From the NCBI GenBank assembly GCA_964596525.1, contig CAZQUL010000001.1:678509-742508 (forward strand): DNA of 64,000 bases, in the 5' to 3' direction. Both the position numbers and the translations under genes were made by a program. This document shows positions 3,001 to 53,003 of the stretch, piece by piece. Source of the stretch: an uncultured Gammaproteobacteria bacterium (GTDB lineage Bacteria; Patescibacteriota; Patescibacteriia; Magasanikbacterales; GWA2-37-8). Numbering within the stretch: position 1 is the stretch's first letter; every line of letters starts with the position of its first letter. The notes beneath the pieces were generated by a model that was not told the origin of the DNA, did no database searches, and saw nothing but the letters and a program-made list of their open reading frames with translations.

Positions 3001-6000
3001 TGTCGTGTTGATCTTGAGTGCCCCTCAGGCCAGGTCTGTTCGGCGGTCGAAGACAAATTACGCCGCAACTACCAGCGTTTGCGCGGCGCCCGTACCTTGC
3101 AGAACGCACTTAGTGCTTACAGCGCCGCCACGAATGGCACCTATCCGGAATTAGCCGAAGGTTCATACCTTAAAGGCCAAACGCTCAGCACCTGGCCGTC
3201 GTGGTCCAACTTGGCTACGGCGCTCCGTACCGATTTGCCGGGCGACCCGATTAATGCTTTAGCTCCAGCTGGAACGTGTGAGCGCACCACAAACCGCTTC
3301 TGTACCCAGAACGCCGAATGTCCGACCGGAGAAGCGTGCGTTATCCATGATCAGCAAACTGCATGGAGTGTTCAGGATCGTCGCTTCAGCTTTGCGTGTC
3401 CCACGTCTTCGCTCGCGTATCGCTACATTTCTATTTCGCCAACCAAGTATCTCGTTAAAGGACGGCTCGAGGATGCTGGTATTTCTCTCAGTAATCTTGA
3501 TACGCTTATTCGCGACTTCGTTGATCCGTCGTCCTTCATCTTTACAGATAAGAACGGTATCTGTAATCAAGATCAAGAAATTTCTACGCTCAACCAGGGC
3601 CGCTGCGGTGATGGTGTTATTAACTACAGCCGCGGTGAAGAATGTGACCCGGTAGGTTCGCAGCGCTTTGGTGCATGTTCGGCTGAGCAGGCTGGCCGTA
3701 TTCGGGTCGATGTATGTTCCTCGAGTTGTACGTTTGTGCCTTCTTCCACGCCGTTTATTGCCTGCTCGGCGTTGAGCTCTTGTGGTAACGGCAAAGTGGA
3801 AGCTGGTGAAACCTGCGACGACGGTGTCTTGAACGGTACTTATAACCATTGCTCGAAATCGTGTACGTATCCGCCGGCCGATCCGCCGGGGTACTGCGGT
3901 GATGGAAAAGTTCAGGGGGCCAATGAAACCTGCGATATCCGCGCCGGTTTGGGTGGTCAGCCAGGTTGGTGTCTGGGCGGTGTGAACAATGGTGCCCCAT
4001 GTACGACAAGCGCGACCTGTAACATCAAAGATGCAATGGATAATGGCGTCGCGATTTCGCTCAGCTCACAGTCTGGCGTGTGTCGTTTGGTTGAGACCAA
4101 TGCCGGACGATATGCTCCGGCGCAAGCTAATTCCTGCAGTTTCGATTGTAAAGCCCGTGGTGCGTACTGTGGTGACGGTATTGTGCAAACCCAATTTGGT
4201 GAAGAATGCGACGGTGCAGCTGCCTGCACGGTATCTGGCTTACCAGGCAGCAAACAATGTTCGAGTTCATGCCGCTTGGTGGATGCAACCGCAGCCGGCT
4301 GGTGGCGCTTCAGTGACTTTACCCGCTACTCCCGTTCGGCGACGATGGCTGATCCCTATCTTACCGTTGCCGACAGCGCCAAGGGTATCGTCGAAGATTT
4401 GGTCTGTGTTGATACAGAATGCCCCTCCTTCAGTATGGATGGTAAATTCGGAGGCGCCTTTAGTTTTAATGGTTCGCACTTCTTGAGAGGAAATGACGTG
4501 ATGACTCGCTCCGCCGCACTCAACGCCACATCGTCTTTGACGGTGGAAGCCTGGGTGTACCCCACCAATCGCGCGCCCTGGATGCGTATTCTTGAGAAAG
4601 GCGGTTACCAGCGTGACGGCGGCTATACCTTCCAGTTCGATGAAAAAGGGGAAAAAGCTTCGTTAGCTATTTGGAATGCGGGGGCATCCATGGCAACCAG
4701 CGTTACGGGACGCACCATCATTCCGCTTAACCGTTGGACGCATGTCATGGCTACGTATTTACGCACCGATGCGACGCATTCTTTGCAGCTCTTCGTTAAC
4801 GGTGAGCTCGACAATGCGGTCACGATCGATAGCGCTGGCATGCTCCTTGCTCCGTCTGACGATCAGATCATCATCGGTCGGGCCACCTCTGGTGGAAGCG
4901 GTTTTATTGGTCGTTTAGATGAACTGAAAGTGCATCTGCGCGCTCTTAACCCGATAGAAATCCAAGATCGTGCCGCGAACGAATCGGTCTGTTCGCTCAC
5001 TTCGGTGCCTAAAGTGGCGGCGGTTGCCCCAGGCGCTTCCTGCGGTGATGGCAAAGTCACCGAAGGCGAGGCGTGTGACCGTGGCGCTCAAAACGGCGTA
5101 CCGTGCGTCCCGGCGTATGGCAAATCCTGTTCCTACTGCCATAGCAGCTGCCGGGTAGTTATCGATGTTCAGTCAGCGGAATTTTGTGGTAATGCCAAAG
5201 TCGAAGCGCCAGAAGCGTGTGAAACCGACGCTGCCACTCAGCTTATCTATTCTGCGCTGCCCAACAGTACTACCAAACAAGAAAAAGACCCTCGTTATAA
5301 TGGTTACGAGGTTCTCTCGTGCGCGGACGAAGCGACAGCTCCCGATATCGTTAAGAAAGGTACTAAATCGTGTGTAAGTTCTTGCTCGGCTGTCCAATCT
5401 AACTGCGCAATTTGCGGTACCGATCTCGAACGCGGGGTAAATATTGCGGGTAGCGTCATTAACATTCTCGATCCCAAGAATCCTAATCCGCTCTATGATC
5501 AGGGGAGGATGGACTTGACGATGTCGGCTAATTCCACGGATAAGCGTGTGGGAGTTGCGGCGTGGTCGGCAGCGAGCGCTATCGAGTATAAACTCCGTCC
5601 GGCTTCGGATCCGTACTCAACCACCGATTTGGCCAAGTTGAGCACTGACAGCCGTTGTTCTTTCGGTGAAGGTCCGCTCTATACCATGTACTTCAACGGC
5701 GATAATACTCACCCGTTCAATTTCCCGGTTTTGGCTAAACCTGAAACATGGCAGAATGATTTCGTGCTTTCGCCAATTATCAACCGTAACGAGCGCCCGA
5801 ACGACATCCGTGTAGTCGTGCGCTGGGTGGGAACCGCGGTTGACTTTGTAAGTGGCTGGCAGGTGTTCCGCGCCGATCCGGATAATCCGTATCAGCTGAC
5901 AACGGTTGAAAGTACGGCGTACAGTTCCAATAATATCCGGAAAGGACCGAACTATTACGATTATCCTCCCGATATTTTGAACGGGTTGTGGTACCACGGC

Positions 6001-13667: not shown

Positions 13668-15107
13668 ATGCCACTTCTTTATACCAAAATCGGCGCCACT
13701 ATCGGACCGTCGTGTGCAACGCCCGAGATTATCGCGGACATGATCCGCGGGGGGATGACGTTTGCGCGTCTCAATTTTTCGCACGGCACTTATGATGATC
13801 ATGCCAAGCTTATCGCTGCTATTCGGAGTGCGGCCAAAAGCGCTGGGCGGCATGTGGCTATCATGCAGGATCTGCAGGGGCCTAAACTGCGCATCGGGGC
13901 GGTGCCTCCCGAGGGAGTAGCAGTTGCAGCGGGTGATAATGTAGTACTTTGTACTACGAAACATGAATATGAACGATCCGGTGAACTGCCGCTCCCGATT
14001 GCGGGTCTCGAGAAAAACATCAAACCTGGTGAGCGGATTCTTATTGACGATGGAACGATTGCGACGGTGGTTGTGGCAACTGCGCCGGGTGCGATTACCG
14101 TCCGGGTTGAAATCGGAGGAAAAGTGAAGGCGCACAAGGGCCTCAATTTTCCGGACAGCAGTTTGGTGGGTATTCCTGCGCTGTCGGAAAAAGATAAAAA
14201 TGATGTGTCGTTCGGCGTTGCCCAGGGCGTGGATTTGATTGCGCTTTCATTCGTTAAACGGCCGCGCGACGTGGTGGAGCTCAAAAGCCATATTGCTAGC
14301 GTGCAGCGCAGTCTCGGCAAACCGATCGTGCCGGTGCCGGTGATTGCCAAGATCGAGCGGCCGGAAGCGCTTGAAGACATTGATCGGATTGTGGAAGTGA
14401 CGGATGGCGTACTCGTGGCGCGCGGTGATTTGGGTCTTGAAACGCCGATGGAACGCCTGGCAGTAGAGCAAAAAGCCATCATTGAAGCCGCGCGGCGTCA
14501 GGCTAAACCGGTTATGATCGCGACGCACCTTCTGGCTTCCATGGAACATAATGCCATACCTACGCGAGCCGAAATCTCGGATGTTGGTCACGCGGTGATC
14601 GATCGTGCTGATGCGCTCTTGCTTACCAATGAAACCGCGGTTGGGGAACATCCGGTTTCGGCAGTGCGCTTTTTGGCGCAAACGGCCAGAGCTACCGAGC
14701 AGACTGCGCTCGATGACGTGGTTATTGCCGGTATTACGGTACCCGATCATCATATCAACTACAGCATTCATGAAATCGCAGAACTTTTACGATCGCATCC
14801 TTTGGTGGATCGGATTGTGGCGTACTCGGTGAACGGCAAAGCTATTCGAACCGTTGCGGCACTGCGCCTTACGATTCCAACCGTAGCGGTGACGAGTGAA
14901 GAACCTGTTTATGCATTGAGTTCCGTGGTGTGGGGAGGGGAAACGCTCTACGTCCCCAAAGCGTGGAATAGTCGCGGCGAGCTCGAGCGGGCGGTTATGG
15001 AAACCGTGCGTGCGCATACCAAAATAACCAAGCGCGAGCGCATCCTCTTTATTACCGATGAAGTCTTTTCGCCGGATGAGCTTATGGCTCAAATCAAAGA
15101 ATTATAA
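13668..15107 (+). CDS. pyk: Pyruvate kinase.
   Basis: TKIGATIGPSC...MTFARLNFSHG matches the PK N-terminal signature. GGAGG lies 9 nt upstream of the ATG at 13668. Length is about 480 aa. Confidence 0.9.
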   Translation: MPLLYTKIGATIGPSCATPEIIADMIRGGMTFARLNFSHGTYDDHAKLIAAIRSAAKSAGRHVAIMQDLQGPKLRIGAVPPEGVAVAAGDNVVLCTTKHEYERSGELPLPIAGLEKNIKPGERILIDDGTIATVVVATAPGAITVRVEIGGKVKAHKGLNFPDSSLVGIPALSEKDKNDVSFGVAQGVDLIALSFVKRPRDVVELKSHIASVQRSLGKPIVPVPVIAKIERPEALEDIDRIVEVTDGVLVARGDLGLETPMERLAVEQKAIIEAARRQAKPVMIATHLLASMEHNAIPTRAEISDVGHAVIDRADALLLTNETAVGEHPVSAVRFLAQTARATEQTALDDVVIAGITVPDHHINYSIHEIAELLRSHPLVDRIVAYSVNGKAIRTVAALRLTIPTVAVTSEEPVYALSSVVWGGETLYVPKAWNSRGELERAVMETVRAHTKITKRERILFITDEVFSPDELMAQIKEL

Positions 15108-15111
15108 AAAT

Positions 15112-15145
15112 ACACCCTCCGTTTCTCGGAGGGTGTAAATTTTTA
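15112..15145. terminator. Bidirectional rho-independent terminator between pyk (+) and the convergent minus-strand genes.
   Basis: ACACCCTCCG-TTTCT-CGGAGGGTGT hairpin flanked by AAAAA on the 5' side and TTTTT on the 3' side. Confidence 0.7.
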
Positions 15146-27630: not shown

Positions 27631-29097
27631 ATGAACCACGGTAACGTGATTCTCAGTTTCGACAAAGTTTCCTTCTATTACCACGAAGATCGCTACCTGC
27701 TTGAGGAAGCGAGTTTTTCGGTGCGCGAAAACGCCAAAATCACGATCATGGGGCAAAACGGCGCCGGTAAGTCCACGATTTTTAAAATGATCACCGGCGA
27801 ACTTAAACCCGAAAAAGGCCAGGTAAATATCCGCCCCGGTGCATCGATCGCCATTGCGACGCAGGTGATGAGCCGTGAGAATCTCGAAAAGACGGTTGAG
27901 GAATTTTTTGCCGCCGCCTTTGACAAGAAACTTTACGATCTCCCCAAGCGCATCAAGGACATTCTGGAAGTCGTGCATCTTTCCGCTCCGCTCGATAAAA
28001 AAATCCGCCAGTTTTCCGGCGGACAGCAGGCGCGCCTTCTTCTTGCTTATGCGCTTATCCAAGAACCGGACATTCTGCTTCTTGATGAACCGACCAACAA
28101 TCTCGATGCCGAAGGTATAGCGCATCTAACGCAGTTCCTTATCGATTATCCCAAAACCTGTCTTGTCATTTCGCACGACGCCACGTTCTTGAACGCGTTC
28201 ACGCACGGCGTTTTGTATCTCGACTCATTTACGCACAAAGTTGAGCAGTACGTGGGTGACTATTACGACGTGCTTGGCAAAATCGAAGAGCAGATAGAGC
28301 GCGAACGCATGAAAAACGCACAGCTCAGAAAAAGCATTTTGGATCGTAAAGAGAAAATCAACTTCTTTGCCAATAAAGGTGGTAAGATGCGCAAGCTCGC
28401 GAGCAAACTACGCGACCAAGTGGCCGAAGCCGAAGATGAGATGGTCGATGAGCGCCAAGAAGACCGGACGATCAACGAATTTATCATTCCCGCACAGGAA
28501 GGCCTTGTCGGGCCGGTCGTGGAAATTAATTCCGTCGGCATCATGATCGATCATGAACCGGTACGCAAAGCAGTGTCGCCGGCGGTAAGTGTACGCAAGA
28601 AAGACAAGCTCCTCATTCACGGCCCGAACGGCATTGGCAAATCGACGCTTCTGGCGGCACTTGCCGAGAAACGGGAAGAGGGTGCGGCTATCGCGCCGGA
28701 TGTTGTTATCGGCTACTATCGCCAAGATTTTTCCGGACTCGACTTTAATAAAACCGGTTACGAAGCGCTCGCCGAAATGATGCATCAGCCGTGGAACCAG
28801 GAAATTTACGCGACTGCCGCGCAGTTTCTACTCACGCCGGCGATTCTTAAAAATACCGTCGGGTCGTATTCTGAAGGACAGAAGGGTTTGCTCTGCTATG
28901 CGCGCTTCGTCTTGCAGAAGCCGGGACTTCTTATCATGGATGAGCCGACCAACCATATCAACTTCCGCCATTTGCCGATCATCGCCAAAGCGCTTGCCGA
29001 ATTTGAAGGCGCGCTCATCGTGGTGAGCCATGCCTACGAGTTCGTCGCTGAGCTCGGTATTACGGATACGCTTGATTTGAGTAGTTTAAAAAACTAA
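27631..29097 (+). CDS. ABC-F family ATPase (two tandem ABC domains, no TM domain).
   Basis: Walker A motifs IMGQNGAGKST and IHGPNGIGKST. ABC signatures FSGGQQARLLLA and YSEGQKGLLCYA. Walker B/D-loops ILLLDEPTNNLD and LLIMDEPTNHI. No TM helices. Confidence 0.85.
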   Translation: MNHGNVILSFDKVSFYYHEDRYLLEEASFSVRENAKITIMGQNGAGKSTIFKMITGELKPEKGQVNIRPGASIAIATQVMSRENLEKTVEEFFAAAFDKKLYDLPKRIKDILEVVHLSAPLDKKIRQFSGGQQARLLLAYALIQEPDILLLDEPTNNLDAEGIAHLTQFLIDYPKTCLVISHDATFLNAFTHGVLYLDSFTHKVEQYVGDYYDVLGKIEEQIERERMKNAQLRKSILDRKEKINFFANKGGKMRKLASKLRDQVAEAEDEMVDERQEDRTINEFIIPAQEGLVGPVVEINSVGIMIDHEPVRKAVSPAVSVRKKDKLLIHGPNGIGKSTLLAALAEKREEGAAIAPDVVIGYYRQDFSGLDFNKTGYEALAEMMHQPWNQEIYATAAQFLLTPAILKNTVGSYSEGQKGLLCYARFVLQKPGLLIMDEPTNHINFRHLPIIAKALAEFEGALIVVSHAYEFVAELGITDTLDLSSLKN

Positions 29098-29120
29098 TTT
29101 ATTAGTGCGTTTATTGACCT

Positions 29121-29225
29121 GTCAGTGCGAGGAACGAAGAATGAGCGATGAAGCAATCCCTCTGATAACAGAGCGAGCTCTGAAATACGAAGGGATTGCT
29201 TCGTCGCTACGCTCCTCGCACTGAC
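29121..29225 (+). promoter_or_regulatory. Long imperfect hairpin of about 105 nt in the leader of the nucleoside hydrolase gene. It contains a 27-codon mini-ORF (29141..29224) with a GAGGAA SD.
   Basis: Outer 13-bp stem GTCAGTGCGAGGA (29121-33) / TCCTCGCACTGAC (29213-25). Inner 15-bp stem CGATGAAGCAATCCC (29146-60) / GGGATTGCTTCGTCG (29192-206) with one G·U pair. The central loop holds the palindrome CAGAGCGAGCTCTG. Confidence 0.5.
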
Positions 29226-29244
29226 GGAAAAACAAGGAGGCCCC

Positions 29245-30099
29245 ATGTCCCGACCGATCCCGATCATTCTCGACACGGATATCGCCGGTGATCCGGATGA
29301 TGTGTTCTGTCTTAACTTTCTCTTAAAATCACCGGAGGCGAATGTCGCGCTTATCATCACTGCTGACGAGCATGATGGTCATCGCGCGCGGTTTGTTCGG
29401 CATTTCCTCGAACGTTTTGGGCGTGCTGATATTCCGGTGGTGCAGGGGGTTGATCTTGGCAACAGCAGGTACTGCTTGGCCTGTGATGAAGCGCCGTTAA
29501 AAGAAACCGTTCCAACCGATACAGCTGCCGCAGTCGCAGAAGTGCTTGGTAAGCATCCAGACGCGCAGTATCTGTGCGTCGCGCCCCAGAGCAATCTAGC
29601 CGGCGTCATTCGTCATGCTCCGGGCCTTTTGCACGATTACAACGTGCCAATCACGCTCATGGGCGGTGGACTTAAGGATTATCGCGATCCTCGTAAGGCC
29701 GAACATAATATCCGGTACGATGTTGATGCAGCGCGTGCGGTGCTTGGAAGCGGTCTTCGACTTCGCTACGTGCTCGGGGATACGACGTTCAATCCGGCCA
29801 TCAAGATCGATGCGCGGCATGAGATTTTCAAGATCCTTGCCACATCACCCAAACCACTCCACAAGATCATCGTGGAGCAGTGCCGTCGGTTTTTTGAGTC
29901 CAGCTACAACTCAACCATGATGCATGATCCCTTGACAGCGGCAGCGGTCATAACGCCTGAACTCGTTACCTTCCGTGAGGCGTGCGTCATTATGGATGAG
30001 CATGGGTGTATGCACGAAGCGCCAGAGGGAAGCAAAGTAGAAGTTAGCGCTACCGCAGATTACACCCGATTCCTTATGCTTTTTGCTGAACGGCTCTAG
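29245..30099 (+). CDS. Inosine-uridine-preferring nucleoside hydrolase family protein.
   Basis: N-terminal Asp cluster ILDTDIAGDPDD, the IUNH DxDxxxDD fingerprint. 284 aa. AAGGAGG SD. Confidence 0.8.
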   Translation: MSRPIPIILDTDIAGDPDDVFCLNFLLKSPEANVALIITADEHDGHRARFVRHFLERFGRADIPVVQGVDLGNSRYCLACDEAPLKETVPTDTAAAVAEVLGKHPDAQYLCVAPQSNLAGVIRHAPGLLHDYNVPITLMGGGLKDYRDPRKAEHNIRYDVDAARAVLGSGLRLRYVLGDTTFNPAIKIDARHEIFKILATSPKPLHKIIVEQCRRFFESSYNSTMMHDPLTAAAVITPELVTFREACVIMDEHGCMHEAPEGSKVEVSATADYTRFLMLFAERL

Positions 30100-30251: not shown

Positions 30252-30686
30252 ATGGTACAGAAGTCGTTCGCTCAGAAGAGTCTTATCGCCGCGTCTTTTT
30301 TCTTTGGCCTGGGGGCGGTGGAAAGTTGCGGTGCCCCGCCAGAGAGGGTTTGCGCTCCGTGTGAGCAGCATCACAGTATTACCGACCCCGAAGGGATGGT
30401 TAACATTCTCGGCGCACTCTATGACAGTACGGGATCGCGAGGTTTTACCGTCCTGTGCGATGCCAAACGCGGTGAGGCTGGCACTCCCGTTGAGGTCGTT
30501 TTTGAAAGCCGGCCGACCGTGCAAAAACCCCTTAAGATCGACTGGCGCATCAAGGGTGCTATGCTTGCGAACCAGAGCCAGGTTTACGAGGTGTTTGAGG
30601 TTACACGCACCTACTCAAGCGGCGCACCGACCATAAAGATTACTTCGTTTATACTCCATCCGCAGGCGATGAGCTGCTTCTTTTAG
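30252..30686 (+). CDS. Hypothetical secreted protein or lipoprotein.
   Basis: AGGAGA SD with the ATG at 30252. A signal-like LIAASFFFGLGAVESCG. No motif recognised. Confidence 0.4.
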   Translation: MVQKSFAQKSLIAASFFFGLGAVESCGAPPERVCAPCEQHHSITDPEGMVNILGALYDSTGSRGFTVLCDAKRGEAGTPVEVVFESRPTVQKPLKIDWRIKGAMLANQSQVYEVFEVTRTYSSGAPTIKITSFILHPQAMSCFF

Positions 30687-31027
30687 CTCTGCGGCTTGAT
30701 GTTTTGTTTCGGGGTTTTAGAGTGCTCCGAAACGATGTGTGCAGGTCTGGCCATCAGCTTCTGACGTGATGGCTTTTTAGTTTGGTTGAGAACGAGGTGC
30801 TCTTTTTCTTTTCTCGTCAGGCATTTGATTTCCGCTTCGCGTCTTTTAGCGCTCGAAGCAGTCGGGTGCTTTTCGCTGTAAACGACGGTAACTGGCCGCC
30901 GCGAACGTGTATATTTTGCTCCGGACGATAGCGAGTTATGCGCATGCAGGCGGTGGGCCAGGTCGGTGGTAGAGCCGGTGTACAATGTGCCATCAGCGCA
31001 TCTGAGGATGTAGACTGTCCAAGTCAT
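30683..31027 (-). CDS. GIY-YIG nuclease superfamily protein (UPF0213/YhbQ-like).
   Basis: VYILRCADGTLYTGSTTDLAHRLHAHN matches the GIY-YIG core. Its start codon overlaps the NUDIX stop (ATGA). Confidence 0.7.
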   Translation of the reverse strand: MTWTVYILRCADGTLYTGSTTDLAHRLHAHNSLSSGAKYTRSRRPVTVVYSEKHPTASSAKRREAEIKCLTRKEKEHLVLNQTKKPSRQKLMARPAHIVSEHSKTPKQNIKPQS

Positions 31028-31458
31028 ACCGAGTTTTGCGGGGTGGAAGAAAGGGATTTTCTCACCTCTTCGGCGATGATATAGATGTTGGGTGCGCACG
31101 CAGGCGGCGGAGGAAGGTTGTCAAGCGAAAACCAGCGCCAGGCGGAAATATCGCTTGTCGGCGTTATGTCGGCATCACTATCACCAATTTCCGCGAGATA
31201 GTGGACAAGGATGATGTGTCGATCTTTGGCTGTGGTAACTAATGGTTCGAGCGGGCGGATGATACGGGCGGTTATTCCAAGTTCTTCTTTTAGTTCGCGT
31301 AGGCAGGCGCTGCGTAAATCTTTATCCGTACTTTCTACCACTCCGCCCGGGAACATCCAGGGGTAAATAGTGCCATTTTTGCTTTGTTCTACCAAAAGAA
31401 GGTGGTTATTCCGGACAATAACAGGTCCGGCGACGACCAAGGCTTGTTCGAGCTTCAT
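31024..31458 (-). CDS. NUDIX hydrolase.
   Basis: Nudix box GGVVESTDKDLRSACLRELKEELGI (Gx5Ex7REUxEExGU). Confidence 0.8.
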   Translation of the reverse strand: MKLEQALVVAGPVIVRNNHLLLVEQSKNGTIYPWMFPGGVVESTDKDLRSACLRELKEELGITARIIRPLEPLVTTAKDRHIILVHYLAEIGDSDADITPTSDISAWRWFSLDNLPPPPACAPNIYIIAEEVRKSLSSTPQNSV

Positions 31459-31637: not shown

Positions 31638-31973
31638 ATGAACAATAAATTATTTGTAGGTTCGTTGTCGTTTGATACGACTGAAGAAAGCTTGGCCCAG
31701 GCCTTTTCTGTGGCTGGCACCGTTAAATCCGCCAAAGTCATGACCGATAAATTCACCGGTCGTCCGCGCGGTTTCGGTTTCGTAGAAATGGGCAGCGACG
31801 AAGAAGCCCAGAAAGCCATTGAAATGTTGAATGGTCAGGCGATTGATGGCCGCCCAGTTGCGGTTAGCATCGCTCGTCCGCTCGAAGATCGTCCGCCTCG
31901 CCGCGCCGGTAACGGTGGTGGTTTCGGTGGTGGTCGTGGTGGTTTTGGCGGCGGTTCCCGCGGTCAGTTCTAA
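31638..31973 (+). CDS. RRM-type RNA-binding protein with a Gly-rich C-terminal tail.
   Basis: RNP-2 KLFVGSL and RNP-1 RGFGFVEM, with a C-terminal GGGFGGGRGGFGGGSRG. Confidence 0.85.
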   Translation: MNNKLFVGSLSFDTTEESLAQAFSVAGTVKSAKVMTDKFTGRPRGFGFVEMGSDEEAQKAIEMLNGQAIDGRPVAVSIARPLEDRPPRRAGNGGGFGGGRGGFGGGSRGQF

Positions 31974-31993
31974 TCTCCAACATCAAAAACAAA

Positions 31994-32024
31994 AAACAGG
32001 GTCCGTGCAGCCCTGTTTTTTGTT
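31994..32024 (+). terminator. Rho-independent terminator after the RRM gene.
   Basis: AACAGGG-TCCGTGCAG-CCCTGTT followed by TTTTTTG. Confidence 0.65.
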
Positions 32025-32997: not shown

Positions 32998-34770
32998 TTA
33001 GATTAGATTTTTTACCATGTAGGTGTTTTCTAGTTCGTATCCCCATTTACGGTAGTAATCTCGTACGCCAACGCCCGAGATAACCGCTAACTTGTCGACA
33101 TTTTTTGATTGAGCGATACCCTCGGCTTTGGCGACGAGCTGTTTGCCTAGACCGCGATGTTGGATATGTTCGGCGTTGCGTTCGCCCAACTCGAGGAGTT
33201 GGCCGTACGTGTGAAGTTCGCGGATGAAAGCGCGGTAGAAGACTTTTTTGGCCGGGTGAAGAGGATTTTCATCGAGGACGCGCAAGCGGCAAAACGCGAA
33301 AACCGCTTGACGATCTTTGTCTTCAAAACTCAAAAAGTACTCTGTTCCGCCCTGCGTAGCGTATTCGTCGATAAATAGTACCGGTGTAGGATCGGCGATG
33401 CTGTGCGGGTCGACATGGCCCACTTCGCGGCAGCGCAAACACTGACAGCGAATGCCGTCCCGTTTCATTTCATCTTCAATGACTTGGCGGAGATTGGTGA
33501 CTTTATTGCCTTCTTCGATGTACTGACCAGGAATGTCGCGAATGAGGCGAGAAACGCGGGTGTAGCGGGGGAGATGGCGCTGAGCTTCTTTTAGTACACG
33601 GATAAGTTCCACCGTCGGGTAGGCGCGGTAGTTTCCGGCTTGAAACCAGTCGTAGAGCTCGGAATTTTTGACGACCGAGCAGGGGTAGATCTTGATCATG
33701 TCGGGGCGGAAACCCGGGTCGTCGAAAACGGTTTTGATCATGGCTAAATCCTTATCGGGTGGTGAACCGGGGAGTTGCGGCATGAGGTGGAGGTCTGCTT
33801 TGAACCCGTAATTGCGCAAAAGTTCGAGAGCATCTTTGGCTTCTTGGTTCGTATGGCCGCGTTTGATGAGAGTAAGCACGTCATCATCGGTATGCTGGAG
33901 GCCGATCTCGAGGCGTGTGGCGCCTAGTTCGCGCATGATCCAGATGGTATGGTCATTGATGCAGTCGGGGCGCGTTTCGAGCGTGAGACCGATGATACGA
34001 TGGGCGGCAGTTTCGTTGATGGTCTGTTCATAGAGGAGTGCGGCGCGTAACTCGGGAAGTGGGGAGTGTTCGGTAAGGATTGCTTTCCTATCATTGCGAG
34101 GAGGTACGACAAAGTAATCCCCCCGTGGTTCAGAGCTTTTTCTACTGCTAATGGGGTTGCTTCGTCGCTCCTGCGTCGCTTCTCGCAATGACACGTTTAG
34201 CTCGTTGCACGCTTGGAATGAACGCAAGATGAACCAATATTGATACTGAAGCGGATACGAATTCCATGTTCCGCCTTTGACGATGAATTCGATTTTATCT
34301 GTGGGGTGGCCGTTATTCTCGAGCGCTTCGAGGCGTCTGGCCATTTGTTCGTACGGGTCAAATTCAAGCGTGAGGGCGCGCATGGCGGCCGGTTCTTCGG
34401 AAAGATAACTTTTGGGCATACGCTCGTCGAGGGGGCAGTAAACGCATTTGCCGGGGCAAGGGTAGGGCTTGATGAGCGATGTGACGATTGCGACGCCGGA
34501 GAGGCTGCGCACCGCGCGGCGGGTGAGAATGCGTTCCAAATACTCGTTCGGTTTGATGTGCGCATTTTTAACCATGGTACGGTACGTTTTGAGGAGTTCC
34601 GTTTTGCTCGGAAAGGCTTCTTTGGATGACAGCTCAGCTACGGCAAGTCGTTTGAGATTATTAAAAGCCGCCTCGCTCTTAGGAGGATTTTCGAGGGCTT
34701 TCTGGATGATGGTTTGGGCGAGGTCCATACGGATAGGCTTTACCTTAGCAAAAACCCTTTGCTTGCGCAA
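32998..34770 (-). CDS. ELP3-family radical-SAM/GNAT protein (tRNA wobble-uridine modification, archaeal/eukaryotic Elp3 homologue).
   Basis: Radical SAM cluster region PCPGKCVYCP following the conserved RSLSGVAIVTSLIKP. A C-terminal GNAT acetyl-CoA motif RGLGKQLV. 590 aa. Confidence 0.8.
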   Translation of the reverse strand: MRKQRVFAKVKPIRMDLAQTIIQKALENPPKSEAAFNNLKRLAVAELSSKEAFPSKTELLKTYRTMVKNAHIKPNEYLERILTRRAVRSLSGVAIVTSLIKPYPCPGKCVYCPLDERMPKSYLSEEPAAMRALTLEFDPYEQMARRLEALENNGHPTDKIEFIVKGGTWNSYPLQYQYWFILRSFQACNELNVSLREATQERRSNPISSRKSSEPRGDYFVVPPRNDRKAILTEHSPLPELRAALLYEQTINETAAHRIIGLTLETRPDCINDHTIWIMRELGATRLEIGLQHTDDDVLTLIKRGHTNQEAKDALELLRNYGFKADLHLMPQLPGSPPDKDLAMIKTVFDDPGFRPDMIKIYPCSVVKNSELYDWFQAGNYRAYPTVELIRVLKEAQRHLPRYTRVSRLIRDIPGQYIEEGNKVTNLRQVIEDEMKRDGIRCQCLRCREVGHVDPHSIADPTPVLFIDEYATQGGTEYFLSFEDKDRQAVFAFCRLRVLDENPLHPAKKVFYRAFIRELHTYGQLLELGERNAEHIQHRGLGKQLVAKAEGIAQSKNVDKLAVISGVGVRDYYRKWGYELENTYMVKNLI

Positions 34771-44049: not shown

Positions 44050-44745
44050 GTGACCGCGATTATCGGAAACGTGGTAGTTGATGGTAAAAACTACGGAGTA
44101 AAAGTCGTAAAAGAGGCAAAAAATCCTCATAATCTTGCCGCTAGCTGCAGCTGCCTCGAGCGCCTTAAAGAAGGCGGGCGGGAACGTGAAAAAAACACCG
44201 GTTTTCTGCCGGTCGATCCGCCGCCGGGGAGTGAACCGGGAAGTGCCGGGTACGTCTGCCTCGGTTGTCGGACCTTCTTTTGCCCAGCGGGCTGGGTGGA
44301 ACGGCTGTTTGTCCCTCTTAACACCACGATTATCGGAAATGTAGTAATCGACGGCAAGAAGTACGGAATCAGTGTTGTTGCAGAGACCAAAGAGCCTTAT
44401 TACCTGGCTGCTGTCTGCCGATGTTTTAAAGGAATCGATCAACGAGATCGACATGGGGAAAACACCGGTTTTCTGCCGGTCGATCCGCCGCCGGGGAGTG
44501 AACCGGGAAGTGCCGGGTACGTCTGCCTCGGTTGTCGGACCTTCTTTTGTCCGATCGGAATGACAGGGCAATTGTTCGCACCACTCAACGCCCAAGAGAC
44601 CCCTCCTTCGCCCCATCCGTCACCGGAGGTGATCGAAGAGATGAAGCGTCGGATGCGTGAAGACGGCATCAGCGAGCGTAGTTTCGCCGAGATGAACAAT
44701 CTGATTCATCGCCGCCGACGGCGCCATCGTCACGAGGAAGGCTGA
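44050..44745 (+). CDS. Hypothetical protein built from two tandem Cys-rich units of about 90 aa, plus a basic His/Arg tail.
   Basis: Unit 1 is NVVVDGKNYGVKVV...CSCLERL...NTGFLPVDPPPGSEPGSAGYVCLGCRTFFCP. Unit 2 is NVVIDGKKYGISVV...CRCFKGI...NTGFLPVDPPPGSEPGSAGYVCLGCRTFFCP. The C-terminus is HRRRRRHRHEEG. Confidence 0.5.
   Translation: MTAIIGNVVVDGKNYGVKVVKEAKNPHNLAASCSCLERLKEGGREREKNTGFLPVDPPPGSEPGSAGYVCLGCRTFFCPAGWVERLFVPLNTTIIGNVVIDGKKYGISVVAETKEPYYLAAVCRCFKGIDQRDRHGENTGFLPVDPPPGSEPGSAGYVCLGCRTFFCPIGMTGQLFAPLNAQETPPSPHPSPEVIEEMKRRMREDGISERSFAEMNNLIHRRRRRHRHEEG
44193..44549 (+). repeat. Two identical direct repeats of about 90 bp (44193-44282 and 44460-44549), period about 267 bp, inside the 44050..44745 ORF.
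   Basis: AAACACCGGTTTTCTGCCGGTCGATCCGCCGCCGGGGAGTGAACCGGGAAGTGCCGGGTACGTCTGCCTCGGTTGTCGGACCTTCTTTTG occurs twice. The flanking repeat-unit sequence has diverged to roughly 60% aa identity. Confidence 0.85.
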
Positions 44746-52958: not shown

Positions 52959-53003
52959 AAAAACACTACGACCTCGGTACAGCCGAGGTCGTAGTGTTTT
53001 TTT
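52959..53003. terminator. Strong bidirectional terminator between convergent genes.
   Basis: A 15-bp perfect stem ACACTACGACCTCGG-TACAG-CCGAGGTCGTAGTGT flanked by AAAAA and TTTTTTT. Confidence 0.8.

Follow-up and report, generated by a model that had tools for sequence, protein, structure and literature searches.

What is the hairpin of about 105 nt that lies between an ABC-F ATPase gene and an inosine-uridine nucleoside hydrolase (IUNH) gene in this stretch of DNA, and is the locus regulated by it? The window, by which we mean the whole 64-kb stretch analyzed here, has been read once before from its sequence, and that original prediction proposed that the hairpin might be a leader-peptide attenuator, a riboswitch-like cis-regulatory RNA, a small protein gene or a MITE-like insertion. 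We find that it is very probably an inverted dimer of a palindromic unit of the CGTC-tagged REP or RPE type, a non-autonomous selfish repeat that is a passenger at this locus. The observation of the hairpin was correct, and its interpretation had been carried too far. The idea of a repeated insertion was essentially right, although the element is a REP/RPE-type palindromic dimer and not a classical MITE with TIRs and TSDs.

The hairpin occupies positions 29121-29225 of the intergenic region. Its predicted length of about 105 nt proved accurate, with the start at 29121 rather than 29122. The outer 13-bp stem pairs GTCAGTGCGAGGA (29121-29133) with TCCTCGCACTGAC (29213-29225), the inner 15-bp stem pairs CGATGAAGCAATCCC (29146-29160) with GGGATTGCTTCGTCG (29192-29206) and includes one T-G wobble, and the apex holds the 14-nt palindrome CAGAGCGAGCTCTG (29169-29182); both stems and the central palindrome had been described as such, and all are borne out by the sequence. 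Folding of the two strands as RNA gave strong structures of -69.6 kcal/mol for the + strand (z = -9.05, with none of 200 shuffles as good) and -70.5 kcal/mol for the - strand (z = -8.6, again with no shuffle as good). The ABC-F ATPase gene (27631..29097, + strand) ends with its stop codon 24 nt upstream of the element, and the IUNH gene (PF01156; 29245..30099, + strand) follows, with 8 nt between the end of the element and the IUNH SD and 19 nt between it and the ATG at 29245. The SD, AAGGAGG at 29234-40, is confirmed and is unpaired in the + strand fold. No T-run was found 3' of the hairpin stem and no terminator was called at this site. The + strand sequence after the hairpin is GGAAAAACAAGG, so that the U-tract which follows the GC-rich hairpin of an intrinsic terminator is missing here, as had been noted earlier. 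A promoter-like TTGACC-17-AAGAAT (9/12 matches) was observed at 29114-29142 (+), with its -10 element within the left repeat unit of the hairpin; if this promoter is real, hydrolase transcripts would begin within the hairpin.

The hairpin resolves into two unlike copies of one repeat unit, referred to together as dimer 1. The left unit (29121..29159, + strand) is the long one, was assigned by fuzzy pattern match and by its sequence, and reads (T)GTC-AGTGC-GAG-(17-nt degenerate apex)-TGAA-GCAAT-CC, with the tag base T at 29120. The right unit (29193..29225, - strand), assigned by fuzzy pattern match, reads (C)GTC-AGTGC-GAG-GAGCGTAGCGA-CGAA-GCAAT-CC on its own strand and includes a GCGTAGC mini-hairpin. 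Between them lies a 33-nt spacer (29160..29192) with its own 5-bp palindrome, CAGAG/CTCTG, at 29169-29182. The outer arms of dimer 1 carry a paired change, AGTGC/GCACT, which keeps the pairing between the units and disrupts the pairing within each.

Read tag first, the unit of the wider family is YGTC-ATTGC-GAG-(apical mini-hairpin)-CGAA-GCAAT-CCA and measures 27-40 nt. Among 319 units, the base preceding GTC was C in 70% and T in 27%, and the base after ...GCAATCC was A in 71%, the CC itself being fixed by the search pattern; the copies in the window have the tail CCC. An inverted partner was found on the tail side of 183 of these units and on the tag side of 13, and the spacer length had its mode at 20-24 nt. 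Some units stand alone, and others follow one another in direct tandem. Three phage contigs (L017:28-102, L025:3097-3252 and L031:324-457) hold such tandem arrays of single units, and the apical hairpins within one phage array differ by compensatory changes, for example TCCGC...GCGGA beside CCCGC...GCGGG.

Between tag and tail, the commonest unit consists of 8 + 5 + 9 nt, ATTGCGAG-CGNAG-CGAAGCAAT. The five-nucleotide variable apex was CGNAG in 137 of 157 cases, which gives GCGNAGC with all four bases represented at N, and GCGNAGC or GCGNNAGC formed the apex of 191/336 units (57%). Both sequences are known as extraordinarily stable DNA mini-hairpins (PMC13037366). Of the 85 other apices of at least 8 nt, 28 folded within the best 5% of their own shuffles, relying on perfect but unrelated palindromes that include GCTGAC/GTCAGC and TCCCGA/TCGGGA. 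The internal loop, GAG opposite CGAA, is purine-rich and conserved. The intramolecular stem of the commonest unit comprises five basal Watson-Crick pairs plus two apical ones rather than a clean 8-9 bp.

Covariation of the basal stem was scanned with only GTCAT...GAGCGNAGCGA fixed and the basal triplet left free, for which the chance expectation of an exact complement is ~0.4%. The two halves were exactly complementary in 91 of 101 units of the ATTGC/GCAAT type, in 23 of 27 with ATTCT/AGAAT, in 14 of 20 with ATCCT/AGGAT, in all five with ATTCC/GGAAT and in three of four with ATCCC/GGGAT. Since the 3' halves are complementary throughout these subfamilies, the unit is a stem-loop whose basal stem covaries, whose purine-rich internal loop is invariant and whose apex is free. 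It consists of a YGTC tag that stays unpaired, a basal stem of 5 bp starting with A-T and T-A, the GAG//CGAA loop, a variable apical mini-hairpin and a CCA-like tail. Two unlike units face each other tail to tail over a spacer of ~20-33 nt, and because of this arrangement the entire element can form one long hairpin, as either ssDNA or RNA.

How far such units extend was determined with the arm pattern GGATTGCTTCG-N3-25-CTCGCAMTGAC, which was searched in IMG/VR and in a collection with one genome per species. At least 120 matches were found in IMG/VR phage contigs and at least 120 in species genomes. Among the matches listed, the named hosts were mostly Alphaproteobacteria (Bradyrhizobium, Sphingomonadales, Rhodospirillales and Rickettsiales), accompanied by Gammaproteobacteria (Legionellales), Deltaproteobacteria, Bacteroidota, Chloroflexota, Melainabacteria, Armatimonadota, Spirochaetota and a Helicobacter. 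An exact copy of the right-arm 28-mer of dimer 1 is present in each of three unrelated phage contigs, two of which carry complete hairpins with different loops. A BLAST search of plasmids returned only four short matches to the arm, from Methylocystis and Methylosinus and without annotation. The Logan assembly of the source sample (SRR11567520), which is an independent one, is interrupted within the right arm, where two contigs overlap by 30 nt (L001:1-34 and L002:3967-3996). In a de Bruijn graph such a break arises where a 30-mer occurs in several contexts within the sample, and it implies another copy there of that exact 30-mer, its unusual ACTGAC variant included.

Further copies were looked for within the window as well. 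Fuzzy scans of the 64 kb revealed one other dimer, which the original prediction had not connected with the hairpin, and beyond the two dimers no further units above chance. Dimer 2 (34090-34192) lies within the coding sequence of an Elp3-type radical SAM/GNAT tRNA-modification gene of 576 aa (32998..34728, - strand) and consists of a short unit (34090..34120, +), a 33-nt spacer (34121..34153) and a long unit assigned by pattern match (34154..34192, -). It is in frame, its translation is roughly VSLREATQERRSNPISSRKSSEPRGDYFVVPPRND, and it folds with -46.4 kcal/mol (z = -4.5). Both dimers in the window are heterodimers of a long and a short unit with 33-nt spacers, and when dimer 1 (+) is set against dimer 2 (-) the two are colinear over their full length, with 77 of 105 positions identical (73%). 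Their spacers agree at 19 of 33 positions without gaps, a score reached by 8 of 2000 shuffles. It was therefore the dimer, rather than the single unit, that was copied in this genome, as in REPINs.

The nearest named relatives of this Elp3 are Patescibacteria/CPR bacteria. Orthologs at 69-78% identity were found without the dimer 2 insert. An ortholog that is 76% identical (locus L130) carries at this loop an independent dimer of the family (L130:2838-2990), which differs in apex and spacer. Against the Dehalococcoides Elp3 structure (PDB 5L7J), 53 query residues align to 4 residues of the structure, which places the insertion site in a short loop of 5L7J. More distant Elp3 orthologs (L331 and L332) have other long palindromes, hairpins of the CCCCCCTCGAGGGGGG type, in the same loop, and the L331 Elp3 has in addition, near its C-terminal domain, a dimer of an ATCCA/ATTCT sub-family with the same GAGCGAAGCGAAG core. 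The loop, which follows YQYWF...ACNE, was thus observed with independent palindromic insertions in several CPR orthologs, and it looks like an insertion hot spot. The in-frame copy is, as judged from these alignments, tolerated by an essential enzyme in a surface loop.

It was against this background that the roles proposed for the hairpin were weighed. A riboswitch-like cis-regulatory RNA in the 5' leader of the hydrolase gene would account for the position directly upstream of the IUNH SD and for the strong fold. A search of Rfam with the hairpin, however, returned as its best matches miRNA hairpins below threshold and an SAH model at 17.9 bits against a threshold of 37, and over the whole 64-kb window it returned one tRNA and nothing else. 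The hydrolase gene is rare, and its three closest IUNH homologs, 53-46% identical, are not beside an ABC-F gene and have no such leader; two of the three overlap their upstream gene, which leaves no room for one. These homologs were also considered as an empty-site comparison for dimer 1 and were rejected as too distant and non-syntenic. A family unit was absent downstream of the ABC-F gene in 13 of 13 orthologs (79-53% identity), and the readable genes downstream of those orthologs differ, with no IUNH among them. The near-perfect palindrome offers no asymmetric ligand pocket, and the repeat recurs at hundreds of unrelated loci, including sites inside coding sequences, which makes a riboswitch highly improbable. 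The original prediction had itself named lack of conservation, lack of an Rfam hit and occurrence at many unrelated loci as grounds against a regulatory role, and all three were observed. By sequence comparison we conclude that the hairpin does not regulate the nucleoside hydrolase gene. A hammerhead-like ribozyme, considered on account of CUGA...GAAA cores, was ruled out by inspection, and Rfam likewise returned no ribozyme.

The proposal of a leader peptide or of a small protein rested on a 27-codon ORF, MSDEAIPLITERALKYEGIASSLRSSH, which is indeed present at 29141-29224 and appears in the ORF listing as a 39-aa form with a GTG start (29105-29224). It is preceded at a distance of 6 nt by an SD-like GAGGAA (29129-34), a motif that had also been pointed out. 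The GAGGA, however, is itself a stretch of the repeat consensus (GCGAGGAGCG), the ATG falls within a bulge of 6-7 nt that is not conserved and is specific to one unit of dimer 1, and there are no runs of regulatory codons, so that both the "SD" and the mini-ORF are by-products of the repeat sequence. A 37-aa mirror ORF exists on the opposite strand, as a palindrome would lead one to expect, and the dismissal of an 88-aa minus-strand ORF as a palindrome artefact was likewise reasonable. Passages of the description of CGTC-tagged REPs by Di Nocera, De Gregorio & Rocco 2013 (BMC Genomics 14:522; PMC3733652) treat short ORFs over REPs as spurious. An attenuator or a real small-protein gene is accordingly hardly credible here. 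A classical MITE, meaning a deletion derivative of an IS with TIRs and TSDs that is moved by the DDE transposase of its parent, would share with the element its short, repeated, hairpin-forming and non-coding nature, and is nevertheless very unlikely: no direct repeats flank either dimer of the window or the L130 copy, single units and direct tandems exist, neither a parent IS nor a recurrent neighbor gene was found in ~240 loci, and the tag-stem-loop-tail architecture is REP-like. The probability of a chance palindrome is negligible, given a z of -9 against shuffles and the exact 28-mer in unrelated phage contigs.

There is, finally, the possibility that the element has been exapted as an intercistronic RNA hairpin acting as a REP-like 3' stabilizer, a partial terminator or a decoupler, a secondary role that would be compatible with its identity as a repeat. 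Its site, 24 nt past the ABC-F stop and flanked by two genes of like orientation, agrees with the "uni-REP" position near an upstream 3' end that passages of the 2013 paper (PMC3733652) describe as typical, the + strand RNA fold is very stable and the hydrolase SD stays free. Such a role is nonetheless doubtful, as the U-tract and a terminator call are both absent, the two strands fold equally well, the ABC-F orthologs manage without the element, and the sister copy, being embedded in a coding sequence, could not act in this way. Under the reading that we prefer, a selfish palindromic dimer, the most likely side effect of the insertion would be that the ABC-F mRNA carries a stable hairpin at its 3' end; this could shield it from 3' exonucleases and partly hinder read-through into the hydrolase gene.

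With regard to mobility, copies of the dimer probably spread through a hairpin intermediate of single-stranded DNA, and a putative trans-acting nuclease or transposase would recognize the tag together with the internal loop. A structure at the DNA level is favored by the GNA mini-hairpin and by the fact that the two strands fold equally well, and the GCGNAGC apices argue for a single-stranded-DNA stage, short of proof. Searches by phmmer for RAYT and for the IS608 TnpA (IS200), using approximate query sequences, found none near the units or in the window. When the ORFs neighboring the units were clustered over ~240 loci, no family occurred in more than nine loci and no candidate for a mobilizing gene emerged. 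The window holds just two dimers within 64 kb, which have diverged from each other by 27%, and it shows no sign of recent activity of the repeat. Neither a target-site duplication nor a footprint of excision could be defined, since the orthologs with an empty site have diverged too far. Our search for published follow-up work that names the mobilizing enzyme of CGTC REPs, or that reports REPs in CPR bacteria, turned up nothing specific, and a literature search with 11-mers of the repeat returned primer noise only.

We tentatively entertain a broader reading, which has perhaps a modest chance of being right as a whole. The YGTC family would be a still-mobile, cross-phylum ssDNA hairpin element that spreads through phage genomes and colonizes permissive loops of essential genes in reduced CPR genomes; the invariant tag and GAG//CGAA loop would be recognized and cleaved by a trans-acting enzyme other than RAYT/IS200, and at least three palindromic families, this one included, would have inserted repeatedly at the Elp3 loop as a hot spot. 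If this reading is true, the presence of Rickettsia-type selfish DNA inside protein genes would extend to Patescibacteria.

Several other features of the window were recorded. A small YhbQ-type GIY-YIG gene (30683-31099, -), 1.5 kb away from the hairpin, overlaps the beginning of a NUDIX gene. The repeat had been taken by us to be one that flanks small YhbQ-type GIY-YIG genes; this association was rejected, as phmmer with the GIY-YIG protein of the window found nothing in the ORFs of ~120 phage loci. A GIY-YIG homolog was also observed directly 3' of an ABC-F ortholog that is 77% identical (L253:3988-4293, -), and no link to the repeat was found. A gene for an RRM-domain protein with a glycine/arginine-rich tail, which is unusual in bacteria, is present at 31638-31973 (+), and its arrangement beside the NUDIX and GIY-YIG genes is conserved in the source assembly. 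Near the start of the window, the coding motif TGTGGnAAyGGC...GAAGCTGGTGAA...TGCGA (CGNG..E.GE.C) appears at 565-602, 808-845, 3781-3818 and 5185-5222, and its recurrence suggests large cysteine-rich-repeat proteins encoded there. A tandem duplication with a period of ~270 nt spans 44053-44552; it contains 94 nt that are 99% identical in the two copies (44192-44285 and 44459-44552), next to 101 nt with an identity of only 70%. A perfect 19-bp hairpin at 52959-53001, AAAAACACTACGACCTCGG / CCGAGGTCGTAGTGTTTTT, is flanked by an A-run and a T-run and has the look of an intrinsic terminator working in both directions. Hairpins of similar shape are present at 15103-15145 and 31988-32024.

For annotation, the consequence is that short ORFs over the 29121-29225 hairpin should not be entered as genes, and a false lead is removed, since the locus has no new riboswitch, attenuator or micro-protein. 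For the biology of the repeat, it is of interest that a 22-nt core recurs from Bradyrhizobium to Bacteroidota, in probable CPR bacteria and in phages. A covarying stem with an invariant internal loop and without a known transposase poses a question that has stood since 2013. In-frame palindromic insertions such as dimer 2 also affect protein annotation, alignment and structure prediction for CPR lineages.

Among known repeat systems, the CGTC-tagged REPs defined by Di Nocera, De Gregorio & Rocco 2013 are the most pertinent. As portrayed in passages of that paper (PMC3733652), they have a CGTC tag, which is often TGTC and tolerates CCTC, A-T pairs at stem positions 1-2, a stem of 8-9 bp, a loop of 4-5 nt and a CCA tail. 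They fall into four families and occur in multiple copies per genome. Most are arranged as inverted dimers in a single prevailing orientation, frequently as heterodimers, with 20-100 bp between the units; they lie just 3' of genes, and some intragenic dimers are in frame and encode 20-30 aa. The same passages state that they "apparently lack a dedicated transposase", place such repeats in microorganisms of five phyla, mostly Alphaproteobacteria, and include Rickettsia RPE-4/RPE-6 and Neisseria dRS3 (CGTC-1) in the superfamily (PMC3733652).

The present family corresponds to that description in its tag, which in dimer 1 is TGTC for the left unit and, read on the - strand, CGTC for the right one, in the AT...AT start of the stem, which is kept in all covarying subfamilies, and in its CCA tail. 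The outer arms of dimer 1 deviate, the second stem position being mutated (AG.../...CT). Partners on the tail side predominate, heterodimers are common and the spacers fall within the published range. Also shared are the alphaproteobacterial center of gravity, the site just downstream of a gene, an in-frame dimer inside a gene and the lack of an adjacent transposase, as far as the approximate phmmer queries and the clustering of neighbors reach. Compared by published description, the lengths of the commonest unit fit, and its Watson-Crick pairs number five basal plus two apical. The repeats described here differ in having a 5-bp basal stem with a GAG//CGAA internal loop and a length-variable apex instead of a plain stem, and in a host that is probably a member of the Patescibacteria/CPR.

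REPINs and BIMEs are alike in that an inverted REP doublet forms a long hairpin and the doublet replicates, with singlets occurring too. The tag here is nevertheless YGTC as opposed to GTAG, and no RAYT-like ORF was found in the window or at the loci with the approximate queries. The GCGNAGC and GCGNNAGC mini-hairpins, for their part, are a biophysical motif rather than a genetic element (PMC13037366). Neisseria dRS3 has the superfamily architecture in common and is present in many copies per genome, and its stem sequence differs. This repeat, ATTCCC-N8-GGGAAT, serves filamentous prophages as an integration target.

The closest parallel to dimer 2 is offered by the RPEs of Rickettsia, palindromes that occur in frame in essential genes at tolerated loops, and also between genes, in small genomes, just as dimer 2 lies in frame in Elp3. 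The RPEs differ in host lineage, and this window has one intragenic copy; the likeness is drawn by description, with the tie to RPE-4/-6 made through passages of the 2013 paper (PMC3733652). The in-frame copies in Elp3 and its orthologs suggest that, like Rickettsia, CPR bacteria can accommodate palindromic repeats within essential enzymes.
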